Counted from the stretch's first letter, positions 3,729-61,470 are shown. The stretch is DNA of 64,000 nt from an uncultured Verrucomicrobiae bacterium (GCA_963803315.1 CAWDLY010000020.1:136426-200425), one strand, 5' to 3'. Notes: generated by a model from the sequence alone, not told the origin. A program made the numbers and translations.

Positions 3729-3754
3729 CGTAGGGCGCGACGGCTCGCCTCTTT

Positions 3755-3858
3755 GTCATGTCGAGCGAAGTCGAGACATCTCTCTTTGTTTGGGATGGAT
3801 ACGGTCACTTGGAACAGTGAGAGATTCCTCGACTCCGCTGCGCTTCGCTCGGAATGAC
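3755..3858. repeat. Palindromic MITE-like repeat (family B)
   Basis: GTCATGTCGAGCGAAGTCGAGACATCTC ... GAGATTCCTCGACTCCGCTGCGCTTCGCTCGGAATGAC. It is intergenic, between the fadB-like gene and the acyl-CoA dehydrogenase gene. Confidence 0.8.
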
Positions 3859-42870: not shown

Positions 42871-45800
42871 TTAGTGGAAATCGTGGGAGTTGCTTCCCAC
42901 GAGCTGCTCATGTGCGAGCGGCCGGATCTGTTGCGCCTTGATCAAAACTACGCCATCGGAGTTCTGCACTTCACCTTCGATCAATAAAAACGCCTCTTCC
43001 GTTATGACGAGGCGCAGTTTCTCAAACAGGTCCGGTGTCACGATTGCGTTCGACACACCGGTCTCATCTTCCAGGCTGATGAAAACAAAACCTTTCGCCG
43101 TACCGGGTCGCTGACGGCAGATCACATTTCCGGCAATCTGGACAATCGATTTGTGCCGAGCCTGATTGAGATCGCTCGCGCGCCAGATATTCGGCAAGCT
43201 GTCGCGCAAAAGCTTCATTGGGTGCGGACCAGTTGTTAAGTTCATCCCTTCGTAATCCGCTCGCACGCGCTCCGACATCGTCATCGGAAGAAGCGGCGAA
43301 CTCCTCTTCTGGGGAGCGCACGCCTGTGGCGTGCGGGCGAAGGCATTCTGCCTTCGCGAACTTTTCTGAGCAGCGCACATCTCTCCTGAAGTCTCCGGCT
43401 CCATAAAAGTTCGTCGTTGCAGAATGCAACGACCAGCACGCTGCAAGCGTGCGCTCCCCAGAAGATCATCATGCCACGTCTCTTCTACATCCCACATCGC
43501 CGCCCGCCGATGTTCGGCAAAACAATTCAGCGCGCCCAATTCCGCCAATGTCCGCAGCTCTTCCTTCGACAATGAAGTACGTTGCCGGAAATCGTCCATC
43601 GAGCACAACGGCTTTTCATTGCGTTGCCTAACGAGTTCTTCCACATGCTCCTGCCGCAAACCGTTCACCACACAAAAACCCAATCTCACCGTGTCATCCG
43701 AAATAACGGTGCAGCGCCATTCCGAGCGTTGCACGCAAACCGGTTCCATCTTTGTCCCATGCCGGCGTGCATCCTTGACGATGGTTGCGGGCGTATAAAA
43801 TCCCATCGGCTGATTATTCAGCAGACTGGCGTAAAACTCCGCCGCGCGATGCACTTTTAGATATGCACTGCCATAAGCGAGAATGGCAAAACTGATCGCG
43901 TGCGATTCCGGAAATCCGTAAAGCGCAAACGATGTGATCGCCTGCAGGATTTTTTCGATCACATCAGGTGCGATATTTTTCCGCATCATCGCGGTGCGCA
44001 ATTTCACGCTCACTTTTTGCATCCGCTCCTGCGAACGATGAAAGCTTAGCGCCCGTCGTAACTCTTCCGCTTCATCGCCGGAAAAATCTGCCATCACCAT
44101 CGCGATCTTGAGCATCTGCTCCTGAAACAACGGCACGCCGAGGGTACGACCTAAAATCGGTTCAAGTCGCGGATCAAAGTAAGTAACCGGTTCGCGGCCG
44201 GCGCGTCGCGCCAGATACGGATGCACCATGTCGCCCTGGATCGGCCCCGGGCGGATGATCGCGACTTCGATGACAACATCGTAAAAACATTTCGGCTTCA
44301 TCCGCGGCAGCGTCGCCATTTGCGCGCGGCTTTCGATCTGAAACACACCGATCGTGTCGGCTTTCTGCATCATCTCGAAAGTGGCCGGATCGTCCTTCGG
44401 AATATGGGCGAGATCGAGCGGGCGATTGCGTTCGCGGCACAACTCAAACGCATCCTGCATCACTGACATCATGCCGAGGCCTAACAAGTCCACTTTCACG
44501 ATGCCGAGATCTTCGCAATCATCCTTGTCCCATTGCGCCACGACGCGTCCCGGCATCGATGCATTTTCCAAAGGCACAAACGAGCTGAGCTTGTTCTGAC
44601 AAATAATCATCCCGCCAGAATGCTGGCCGAGATGGCGCGGCAATCCGTAGATCGCGCGATACAAATTCACGAATGCCGGCATGCGCGGATGCGCTTTGGG
44701 CAATCCGGCCTGCTCGATTTGCGATTGCAAATCGAGCGTGTGCGGGAAATCGCCGTTCGCAAAAAGATGCGAGAAACGATCGAGAATGCTGGGCGAAAAA
44801 TTCAGCGCTTTACCGATTTCACGTGCCGCGCTGCGACCGCGATAGGTAATCACGTTTGCCGTCATGGCAGCGCCATGTTTGCCGTAGCGACGATAAATTT
44901 CCTGGATGACGCTTTCACGGCGATCGCCGCTCGGCAGATCGAGATCGATGTCGGGCCAGCCTTTGCGGCTTTCGCTGAGAAAACGCTCGAAAACCAAATG
45001 GTTGCTGACCGGATCGACCGGCGTGATCCCAAGACAATAACAGACCGCGCTATTCGCTGCGCTACCGCGGCCCTGCACCATGACATTGTGTTCGCGGCAG
45101 AAATTGATGATGTCCCAAACGATTAGAAAATATCCTGAGAAGCCGAGCTTTTGAATAAGGGCCAGTTCCTCTTTGAGTTGTCTTTTTACTGCGCTGCTGA
45201 TCGCGTCATAGCGTTGCTGCGCGCCAAACCAGACGATGGTGTTGAGGAACGAATTCATGTTGTGTCCATCAGGAACGGGAAATTGCGGGAATTCGTAACC
45301 GATGTTTTCGAGTGAGAACGTGAGGCGTTCCGCGAGCCGTTCCGTGTTCGCAATCGCATCAGGACGATCGTGAAAAAGTGCGCGCATTTCCGCATCGCTT
45401 TTCAGATGGCGTTCGCTGTTTTGGCTCAGAAGTTTTCCCGCGGCATCGAGATGTGTGTGCTCTCGGATGCAGGTAAAAACATCGAGGACGTTTCGACCGT
45501 TTGATGTCGCGTACTGCACGCCGTTTGTCGCGAGTAACGGCAGCCGATAATGATCCGCCAGATTGATTAGCTGCCGATTAATCTGTTCTTCGCCGCGGAT
45601 GAAATGGCGCTGGATTTCAACGTAAACATTCTTGCGACCGAACCCATCGATAAGGCGTTGCACATTCTGGGGAGCGCACGCCTGTGGCGTGCGGGCGACG
45701 ACATTCTGTCGTCGCGAACTTTTCTGAGCAACGTACATCTCCCCTGAAGTCGGCAGCTCCATCAAAGTTCGTCGTTGCAGAATGCAACGACCCGCACGCT

Positions 45801-46209
45801 GCAAGCGTGCGCTCCCCAGAGTTTCCCCCAGAGTTTTCCCCAGAAGGGCTACTAGCCCGGCACTGAATCGCGGGAGTTCATCCCATCGCACCGCGCATTC
45901 GCCTTTCACTTCGCTCCGGAGATGCGCTTCGGTCAGGAGCGAGCAGAGATTCGCGTAGCCGGTGCGATCCTGCACGAGAACCGGCAAAATACTGCCGTCC
46001 TCTATTGTCAGTTCGCTGCCAACGATCGGCCGCACATTTTGTTCGCGCGCGGCAACAGAAAATCGTTGCGCGCCATATACGCCGTTGCGATCGAGCAACG
46101 CCAGCGCCGGCATTTCCAACTCGGCGGCGCGTTCCGCTAAATGTTCAGGAAAAGATCCGCCACGCAGGAAACTGAAAGCGCTGCACGCATGGAGTTCGAT
46201 GTAAGACAT
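42871..46209 (-). CDS. dnaE2: Error-prone DNA polymerase DnaE2 (with two 50-aa repeat-encoded inserts)
   Basis: Intact 1112-aa ORF with PHP domain (YIELHACSAFSFLRG), pol III alpha core and an OB fold. It lies immediately downstream of the imuB fragment. Confidence 0.9.
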   Translation of the reverse strand: MSYIELHACSAFSFLRGGSFPEHLAERAAELEMPALALLDRNGVYGAQRFSVAAREQNVRPIVGSELTIEDGSILPVLVQDRTGYANLCSLLTEAHLRSEVKGECAVRWDELPRFSAGLVALLGKTLGETLGSARLQRAGRCILQRRTLMELPTSGEMYVAQKSSRRQNVVARTPQACAPQNVQRLIDGFGRKNVYVEIQRHFIRGEEQINRQLINLADHYRLPLLATNGVQYATSNGRNVLDVFTCIREHTHLDAAGKLLSQNSERHLKSDAEMRALFHDRPDAIANTERLAERLTFSLENIGYEFPQFPVPDGHNMNSFLNTIVWFGAQQRYDAISSAVKRQLKEELALIQKLGFSGYFLIVWDIINFCREHNVMVQGRGSAANSAVCYCLGITPVDPVSNHLVFERFLSESRKGWPDIDLDLPSGDRRESVIQEIYRRYGKHGAAMTANVITYRGRSAAREIGKALNFSPSILDRFSHLFANGDFPHTLDLQSQIEQAGLPKAHPRMPAFVNLYRAIYGLPRHLGQHSGGMIICQNKLSSFVPLENASMPGRVVAQWDKDDCEDLGIVKVDLLGLGMMSVMQDAFELCRERNRPLDLAHIPKDDPATFEMMQKADTIGVFQIESRAQMATLPRMKPKCFYDVVIEVAIIRPGPIQGDMVHPYLARRAGREPVTYFDPRLEPILGRTLGVPLFQEQMLKIAMVMADFSGDEAEELRRALSFHRSQERMQKVSVKLRTAMMRKNIAPDVIEKILQAITSFALYGFPESHAISFAILAYGSAYLKVHRAAEFYASLLNNQPMGFYTPATIVKDARRHGTKMEPVCVQRSEWRCTVISDDTVRLGFCVVNGLRQEHVEELVRQRNEKPLCSMDDFRQRTSLSKEELRTLAELGALNCFAEHRRAAMWDVEETWHDDLLGSARLQRAGRCILQRRTFMEPETSGEMCAAQKSSRRQNAFARTPQACAPQKRSSPLLPMTMSERVRADYEGMNLTTGPHPMKLLRDSLPNIWRASDLNQARHKSIVQIAGNVICRQRPGTAKGFVFISLEDETGVSNAIVTPDLFEKLRLVITEEAFLLIEGEVQNSDGVVLIKAQQIRPLAHEQLVGSNSHDFH
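43308..43462. repeat. Palindromic repeat, family D, in-frame in dnaE2 (copy 1)
   Basis: TCTGGGGAGCGCACGCCTGTGGCGTGCGGGCGAAGGCATTCTGCCTTCGC ... GTTGCAGAATGCAACGACCAGCACGCTGCAAGCGTGCGCTCCCCAGA. Translated as GSARLQRAGRCILQRRTFMEPETSGEMCAAQKSSRRQNAFARTPQACAPQ. Confidence 0.8.
45666..45820. repeat. Palindromic repeat, family D, in-frame in dnaE2 (copy 2)
   Basis: Same 155-nt element, about 90% identical by eye, in the same orientation. Translated as GSARLQRAGRCILQRRTLMELPTSGEMYVAQKSSRRQNVVARTPQACAPQ. Confidence 0.8.
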
Positions 46210-49276: not shown

Positions 49277-49341
49277 AAGACGAATATGAGCGGGTTTAAT
49301 ATATGTTCAAGTGAACTTAAGCAAATCGGGGTCTCTTTTTT

Positions 49342-49433
49342 GTCATGTCGAGCGAAGTCGAGACATCTCACATTGTTCATCGTCCTCCGTCCCAGCTAAC
49401 AGTTAGAGATTCCTCGACTTCGCTCGGAATGAC
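49342..49433. repeat. Palindromic MITE-like repeat (family B)
   Basis: GTCATGTCGAGCGAAGTCGAGACATCTCAC ... AGAGATTCCTCGACTTCGCTCGGAATGAC. Confidence 0.8.
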
Positions 49434-61355: not shown

Positions 61356-61382
61356 GAGCATCTGACGCTGTGGAAAAGCTCT

Positions 61383-61470
61383 GTCATTCCAAGCGCAGTC
61401 GAGGAATCTCTCATTGGTATTACCCGGCGGAATAAACAGTAAGAGATGTCTCGACTTTGCTCGACATGAC
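61383..61470. repeat. Palindromic MITE-like repeat (family B, inverse orientation)
   Basis: GTCATTCCAAGCGCAGTCGAGGAATCTCTC ... GAGATGTCTCGACTTTGCTCGACATGAC. Confidence 0.8.

Follow-up and report, generated by a model that had tools for sequence, protein, structure and literature searches.

We analysed a 64,000-nucleotide stretch of DNA (the window; positions 136426-200425 of contig C20, CAWDLY010000020.1) from an uncultured Verrucomicrobiae bacterium (GCA_963803315.1), and found that its dnaE2-like gene, coding for an error-prone DNA polymerase III (Pol III) alpha-type polymerase, contains two palindromic elements of about 155 nt that are read through in frame. The genome contains about 100 loci of the family to which both belong. 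Their arms form hairpins that covary, a gene for a REP-associated tyrosine transposase (RAYT; REP, repetitive extragenic palindrome) lies between matching arms elsewhere in the genome, the frame of dnaE2 is intact, and in related species the same two sites are occupied by various repeats. From these observations we infer, with a probability of about 0.8, that the dnaE2 inserts are non-autonomous mobile elements akin to REPINs (REP doublets forming hairpins), and that their likely autonomous partner is the arm-flanked RAYT, a transposase of the HUH/Y1 type that acts on single-stranded DNA.

Two palindromic elements inside DnaE2

The window is part of a metagenome-assembled genome (MAG; here G000) of 4.08 Mb in 34 contigs that is 85% complete; contig numbers preceded by C refer to this assembly. 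The protein encoded by the dnaE2-like gene shows the full Pfam architecture of Pol III alpha/DnaE2 (PHP, DNA_pol3_alpha, finger, HHH_6 and OB), matches Pol III alpha chains in the PDB with E = 1e-117 and retains the catalytic PDIDLD and KVDLLGL motifs. Its relatives all come from Chthoniobacterales / Ca. Udaeobacter MAGs, and a lookup of the encoding contigs found no record of this exact protein.

Direct reading of the sequence, pairwise alignment and a repeat finder agree on two copies of 155/156 nt at 43307-43462 (copy A) and 45665-45820 (copy B), which share orientation and 92% identity. The repeat finder groups them as family D8, with inverted repeats I1, I3 and I4 and inverted arms of 57-64 nt. 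On the coding strand of dnaE2 each element supplies 51 in-frame codons running from CTG to CAG (L131-Q181 and L917-Q967); the 155-nt repeated block consists of these 51 codons plus one flanking T and one flanking A. A model that had read the window from sequence alone (the original prediction) had described two copies about 90% identical and in the same orientation, with long inverted termini and internal hairpins, inside a 1112-residue DnaE2 open reading frame (ORF) that they leave unbroken. The ORF list, the translation and Pfam bear this out. The prediction of exactly 50 residues per insert falls one codon short, and the first site, which had been placed between the PHP region and the polymerase core, lies inside the PHP domain (Pfam residues 5-202). 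The second site was correctly placed ahead of the OB fold: it falls in the linker that joins the HhH domain (819-903) to that fold (1023-1098).

Each element is built as an inverted pair of double-hairpin arms of about 57 nt around a spacer of about 41 nt, the layout of a REPIN, and folds as one long closed hairpin with two local stem-loops. Computed on the 149-nt element cores, the RNA folds have energies of -97.2 kcal/mol for copy B (z = -11.9) and -91.4 kcal/mol for copy A (z = -9.3), both z-scores being relative to dinucleotide shuffles. One hairpin (the inner one of the second arm in copy B) reads GAAGGCA/TGCCTTC in copy A and GACGACA/TGTCGTC in copy B, and thus differs by two compensated changes. 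A permissive Rfam scan of dnaE2 gave a single match, MIR918 at 43312-43458 on the minus strand, which at 34.6 bits against a threshold of 268 we dismissed as a spurious hit on the long hairpin. We also discarded an apparent duplication of a dnaE2 fragment at C20:323373-323726, matching residues 851-971, because the blastp similarity was confined to the element.

In the protein, both inserts fall into loops, as had been foreseen. Alignment to E. coli Pol III alpha pairs residues 3-133 of the query with 7-142 and residues 197-905 with 169-900, leaving both insert regions as gaps. An AlphaFold2 model built on an alignment of 72 orthologues predicts residues 126-179 and 912-968 as coil with local confidence scores (pLDDT) of 22-33 and 29-39, respectively, and confident helices bracket both inserts.

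The two sites were then compared across about 98 aligned DnaE2 orthologues, whose full-length proteins measure 1011-1240 residues. In most of them one or both sites are filled. The inserts fall into several subfamilies, which differ by compensated changes in the first hairpin (GSARLQRAG, GSARVSRAG, GSAGCQPAV, GSARDSRAV and others), and within the genus of the query (87-90% protein identity) three different element types occupy the sites. A few orthologues, such as L053, L061 and L065, have empty or scarred sites, consistent with the earlier claim that the inserts are lineage-specific. An assembly artefact, a possibility raised with that claim, is unlikely, since independent assemblies of related species carry similar inserts at the same two sites. 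In several orthologues (L083, L084, L033, L077, L025 and others) site 2 is taken by an unrelated in-frame repeat of the form (C/R)H(P/S)ERSE...ARDD. This repeat also occurs within a uvrA-like gene of the present genome (C31:29148-32666), which has at least two in-frame repeats of different families, and it resembles a repeat found in the window at 3742-3790, 49329-49377 and 61370-61418.

The repeat family and its RAYT cassettes

By searching the MAG with blastn and four rounds of nhmmer we located about 102 family loci, 64 of them full length and the remainder single arms or partial copies; the inserts are thus copies of a dispersed palindromic element, as predicted. All 128 ends of the full copies share the terminus TC(T/C)GGGGAGCGCACGC-N5-GCGTGC. 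Across these aligned ends we found no target-site duplication, positions beyond -3 not being conserved, and no target-site motif past the conserved TCT/AGA, which is itself inverted and not direct.

The arm structure was assessed on 98 distinct arms. Pairing is kept in 99.4% of stem cells, compared with 77% in shuffles, and drops to 20-53% when the partners are slid by 1-3 columns. Of the stem cells, 351 are altered on both sides; compensatory change occurs in 12 of 16 pairs, and for the second arm stem in eight of nine. Because the stems pair and covary this strongly, down to the compensated changes between copies A and B, we take the arm structure to be under selection. Such covariation is the signature expected of a repeat that would be recognised as a single-stranded hairpin. 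Across the full copies (alignment A3), the loops of an arm's first and second hairpin co-vary by subfamily (GACTC/GACTC, TTGCA or CTGTG/ATTCT, GTCTC/GTCTC, GCCTC/GCCTC), and the second stem, although hypervariable, is always paired. This covariation by subfamily may reflect the matching of each RAYT to its own repeat population.

Searched with Pfam Y1_Tnp (PF01797), the genome gave nine matches, three of which are flanked by units of the family. All three of these genes lie in frame within housekeeping ORFs, namely carB, alaS and recG (Table 1), and the cassettes have neither a start nor a stop codon of their own. Against the NCBIfam model REP_Tyr_transpos (NF047646, cut-off 80 bits) the three RAYTs score 91.6 (recG cassette), 80.3 and 78.8 bits. 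The cassette domain contains the HUH (PDHVH) and tyrosine (YIVRNP; Y-x3-NP) motifs and matches E. coli TnpA-REP (PDB 4ER8), with both motifs aligned. The recG cassette is the closest to the dnaE2 elements: its left and right arms are 86% (48/56) and 93% (52/56) identical to those of copy A, and its 470-nt RAYT holds exactly the position of the 41-nt spacer in the small element. The arms are also read in the same frame, as LGSARLQRAG...[RAYT]...SSRQNAATSTLQACAPQ in the cassette and as LGSARLQRAG...[13 aa]...SSRRQNAFARTPQACAPQ in dnaE2. Since a RAYT occupies the spacer position between matching arms, the 155-nt element therefore relates to the cassette as a MITE (a miniature transposable element with inverted repeats) does to its insertion sequence, or a REPIN to a REPtron.

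Table 1. Coordinates of the dnaE2-like gene, its two elements and the three RAYT cassettes; positions without a contig number are those of the window
Feature	Position	Strand	Remarks and basis
dnaE2-like gene, error-prone Pol III alpha-type polymerase	42871..46209	-	intact 1112-aa ORF hosting both elements; translation, Pfam, PDB
Copy B, site 1, inside PHP domain	45666..45820	-	L131-Q181 = LGSARLQRAGRCILQRRTLMELPTSGEMYVAQKSSRRQNVVARTPQACAPQ
Copy B arm, REP-like two-hairpin unit, headed by terminus TCTGGGGAGCGCACGC	45764..45820		inverted repeat I4, terminus consensus, covariation
Copy B central spacer, 41 nt	45723..45763		position held by RAYT gene in autonomous cassette
Copy B second arm, inverted relative to the first	45666..45722		inverted repeat I4
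Copy A, site 2, linker between HhH domain and OB fold	43308..43462	-	L917-Q967 = LGSARLQRAGRCILQRRTFMEPETSGEMCAAQKSSRRQNAFARTPQACAPQ
Copy A arm	43406..43462		52/56 identical to right arm of recG RAYT cassette (G000 C5:48520-48575)
Copy A central spacer, 41 nt	43365..43405		pairwise alignment, cassette comparison
Copy A second arm	43308..43364		48/56 identical to left arm of recG RAYT cassette (G000 C5:47962-48017)
recG RAYT cassette ORF	C5:47723-48577	+	cassette C5:47962-48575; PF01797 and family arms
carB RAYT cassette	C27:40377-44384	-	1336-aa open frame, carbamoylphosphate synthase domains on either side
alaS RAYT cassette	C12:132632-135265	+	PF01797 and flanking family units

Cassettes of this kind are not confined to the present genome. 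RAYT homologues occur in 20 of 41 related genomes (loci L109-L138), mostly within open frames of 860-1514 residues, and the host genes include recG (at the same site in several families of the order), alaS, carB, metH and valS, as well as thrS. A database search for long proteins returned 907 entries (E <= 1e-10) with the domain inside CarB, AlaRS, MetH, RecG or ThrRS. Many such proteins carry automatic names of the type 'carbamoylphosphate synthase large subunit/REP element-mobilizing transposase RayT'. TnpA-Y1 proteins that were longer than expected were dropped by Quentin et al. (2018) as fusions or errors of annotation, and we found no description of in-frame RAYT cassettes in the literature searched.

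Based on these data we lean, by a narrow balance, towards a more specific origin of the small elements. The 155-nt elements would be RAYT-less miniatures of a mobile element that normally lives inside protein-coding genes, where the full arm-RAYT-arm cassette, lacking its own start and stop, is translated along with its host as a domain within RecG, CarB, AlaRS, MetH, ThrRS or ValRS. The arms would serve as linkers (LGSA... and ...ACAPQ), and the small elements would have kept exactly these two linkers while spreading into permissive loops, preferentially those of DNA-repair proteins such as DnaE2 and UvrA.

Further RAYT genes were noted beside those of the family. A second, longer RAYT type, about 40% identical and flanked by other repeats, occupies the same site in the carB oligomerisation domain (L138 and L125, in the relatives G001 and G010), which points to independent colonisation of a permissive site. 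A different repeat, translated as VIKEGRFPKRP(V/L)FGI...RRLGSRRSL, borders a further Y1/RAYT-like gene on either side at C7:81804-82805 (minus strand); the genome therefore holds several RAYT-repeat pairs.

Frame preservation and alternative explanations

How did two insertions leave the frame of one gene intact? The original prediction had offered either selection for frame-preserving insertions or a length and phase property of the element, and the evidence speaks mostly for the former. The cores of the full copies measure 109-166 nt (n = 64); counted from CT to AG, 27 are multiples of three, whereas 16 leave a remainder of one and 21 a remainder of two. Each of the three entry frames is open in a similar share of cases, 55-65%. 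With lengths in all three classes and frames equally open, we rejected a built-in length or phase property as the main cause. The family is, in addition, poor in stop codons: per copy 3.5 of the six frames are open, whereas dinucleotide shuffles have 2.6 and random segments of the genome 2.2.

Recognisable protein sequence on either side marks about 10 of roughly 95 insertions as truly intragenic. Two of these are in dnaE2; the others are in two uvrA-like genes, hypF, alaS and an exonuclease-ligase fusion, or are the three RAYT cassettes. All intragenic copies are stop-free and a multiple of three in length, and nine of the ten events are read in the LGSA...ACAPQ frame, which is rich in small residues and native to the cassette. 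Among the 17 candidates spanned by an ORF, 11 belong to the frame-keeping class. Most other copies lie just 5' of start codons, for example those of valS, pyrB, nuoD, ku, gmhA and murF. Since intragenic copies are few in a mostly coding genome, selection would purge most insertions into genes. We conclude that the in-frame status of the survivors results mainly from selection, aided by the family's scarcity of stop codons. In the fusion gene (C10:65024-66907, minus strand) a family copy sits exactly at the junction of a metallo-beta-lactamase-fold exonuclease and an ATP-dependent DNA ligase within one open frame, and may have fused two neighbouring genes.

Taken together, the following course of events seems plausible to us. 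The RAYT would recognise the arm hairpins on single-stranded DNA and mobilise the small elements in trans. Insertions into genes would mostly be lost, and those retained would be multiples of three, free of stops and located in surface loops that tolerate an extra peptide. In DnaE2 the inserts would simply be translated, as about 51 disordered residues (LGSA...ACAPQ), in the very frame in which the in-frame RAYT cassettes have the arms as their linkers. For the two dnaE2 copies a recent shared origin, by a local hop or gene conversion, is more probable than unrelated hits.

Several observations weigh against this account. The assignment of copies as intragenic or upstream was made by eye and from stop-to-stop ORFs, using protein sequence on both sides and, for three ORFs, Pfam. 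The AlphaFold2 model is of moderate quality (mean pLDDT 66; predicted template modelling score, pTM, 0.47), and other segments score low too. The terminus GGGGAGCG lacks the GTAG head, and the motif GGGGWSAS of the TIRYT elements is matched at only seven of eight positions. In this assembly three frame breaks interrupt the recG gene that bears the closest RAYT; this RAYT may be inactive, or the assembly may carry indel errors. As to these breaks, recG (C5:46806-49551) is split over four frames by three single-position changes and alaS (C12:131668-135265) has one such change, while the homology of both is contiguous, being 82-94% identical outside the RAYT-bearing segment and 59% within it. Either assembly indel errors or a very recent decay of the RAYT host genes could account for them.

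The original prediction treated the two dnaE2 copies as independent hits, which the family-wide comparison puts in doubt. They are each other's nearest relatives, 92% identical as against at most 81% to any other full-length copy in the genome. Moreover, the same subfamily is found at both sites in 13 of the 28 orthologues that have this kind of element at both (a count which includes the query and one duplicate genome, with subfamilies set by simple peptide patterns), compared with 3.1 expected by permutation. We give somewhat less than an even chance to a copying of one site to the other, or a homogenisation of both, through gene conversion or a local hop within the gene. A subfamily dominant in a given genome could produce equal concordance between the sites, and six or more copies share the same 149-nt core, spacer included; six of these lie on contigs C19 and C20, which indicates that the sub-lineage has recently been active in general. 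A shared origin of this kind concerns how the pair arose and is compatible with the elements being REPIN-like and mobilised by a RAYT. We regard as unlikely that the inserts have been co-opted, with the arginine-rich peptides or the DNA or mRNA hairpins regulating DnaE2 activity or expression, for instance through slower translation of an SOS polymerase. The retention of some insert at the two sites in nearly all orthologues, the very stable structures and the clustering of intragenic copies in DNA-repair genes (dnaE2, two uvrA-like genes, recG and the ligase fusion), a bias also reported by Di Nocera et al. in 2013 (PMC3733652), would fit such a role. The occupants of the sites are, however, unrelated between close species, to the point of three element types within one genus; some orthologues have empty or scarred sites, and the insert peptides are modelled as disordered. 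Such turnover speaks against a conserved function of any particular insert.

Two further explanations seem highly improbable to us. The elements might be removed before the protein matures, by excision at the RNA level or by intein-like protein splicing, given that the long closed hairpin brings the element ends together and that the in-frame RAYT cassettes hold an intein-like niche in essential genes. Yet the insert begins with LGSA(R) and ends with (A)CAPQ followed by K or N, without an N-terminal block bearing a Cys/Ser nucleophile and without His-Asn before a Cys, Ser or Thr. Pfam detected no intein or Hint domain in the DnaE2 protein, in agreement with the earlier note, and the Rfam scan of dnaE2 detected no intron or ribozyme. 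Splicing would also relax the need to be stop-free and a multiple of three, and all intragenic copies satisfy both. In all likelihood the mature protein keeps the insert. Just as little can be said for classical MITEs, which would descend from a DDE-type insertion sequence, move by cut-and-paste and duplicate their target site. Such elements would indeed display long terminal inverted repeats, a length of about 150 nt and many dispersed copies; they would not lack a target-site duplication, as the 128 ends here do, and the sole kind of gene found between matching arms in this 85%-complete MAG is a Y1/HUH RAYT. Lone single arms and strong stem covariation are, in addition, typical of REP systems.

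Relation to known systems

With the RAYT, an in-frame palindromic element gains a likely transposase partner, and small elements are tied to RAYT cassettes that are translated inside housekeeping proteins, a lifestyle apparently undescribed in the literature searched. This lifestyle would make the persistence of RAYTs and REPINs directly testable. The two DnaE2 loops show very fast turnover at fixed positions over about 100 species of an abundant soil clade around Ca. Udaeobacter, and offer a natural map of insertion tolerance in Pol III alpha-type polymerases. In practice, gene calls in soil MAGs are inflated and distorted by these repeats, which give rise to ORF fusions, spurious N-termini and odd double names such as 'synthase/RayT'.

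The nearest precedent is the catalogue of intragenic REPs by Di Nocera, De Gregorio and Rocco (BMC Genomics 2013, 14:522; PMC3733652), which are concentrated in genes for DNA synthesis and repair. For the verrucomicrobium Opitutus terrae it lists DnaE2, the DNA ligase and both uvrA genes; several tRNA synthetases are also included. According to its Additional file 3, dnaE2 of O. terrae (Oter_4053) contains a REP dimer at residues 934-971, equivalent to site 2, and dnaE2 of Sphingomonas wittichii (Swit_1119) a REP group at residues 166-246, equivalent to site 1. The present elements resemble these cases in being palindromic repeat dimers translated in frame in the same host gene at the equivalent two positions, one case being from the same phylum (Verrucomicrobia), and in the shared bias towards uvrA, ligase and tRNA synthetase genes. 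They differ in sequence, lack a GTAG/CGTC head, have two hairpins per arm and contribute 51 codons, whereas most published cases add 20-40. The partner transposase, moreover, is here itself in frame in host genes, which is not described in that study. Neither these published inserts nor the derivation of the element, as a REPIN-like form, from a RAYT cassette formed part of the original prediction.

With REPIN-RAYT systems and REPtrons (Nunvar 2010; Bertels & Rainey 2011, PMC3116915; Ton-Hoang 2012) the family shares hairpin repeats arranged as an inverted doublet around a spacer, present in many copies, and a Y1/HUH transposase between inverted copies of the same repeat, there being several RAYTs each with its own repeat subfamily. 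Of the features that define such systems we found a dispersed hairpin repeat, an inverted doublet that folds as one hairpin and a RAYT flanked by the same repeats. A GTAG/CGTC head was absent from all 128 ends, the nearest match being the GGGGWSAS motif of TIRYT/TIRtron, in which RAYT-like genes lie between long inverted repeats (PMC3733652). Classical systems have extragenic REPINs and stand-alone RAYT genes; here, by contrast, elements and RAYT cassettes lie inside coding sequence, are read through and lack the GTAG tetranucleotide.

In behaviour the elements also recall the Rickettsia palindromic elements (RPEs; Ogata et al. 2000, Science 290:347; PMC10969869), palindromes of about 100-150 bp that occur in many copies and in frame in functional genes. 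A sizeable fraction of RPEs lies in frame in unrelated genes, with peptides predicted at the protein surface (PMC10969869). The resemblance is not one of membership, as the host belongs to another phylum (Verrucomicrobiota); the sequences, too, are probably unrelated. RPEs have no known transposase partner, whereas a RAYT can be named here, and only about 10% of the present copies are intragenic. Inteins, too, are mobile and persist in frame in conserved proteins, and the RAYT cassette stands to the small element as a full intein to a mini-intein; unlike inteins, the elements have no splicing motifs and no homing endonuclease. Translated palindromic DNA in loops, and even REPs in dnaE2, are thus already known, and it is the link to an in-frame RAYT cassette that is less ordinary.

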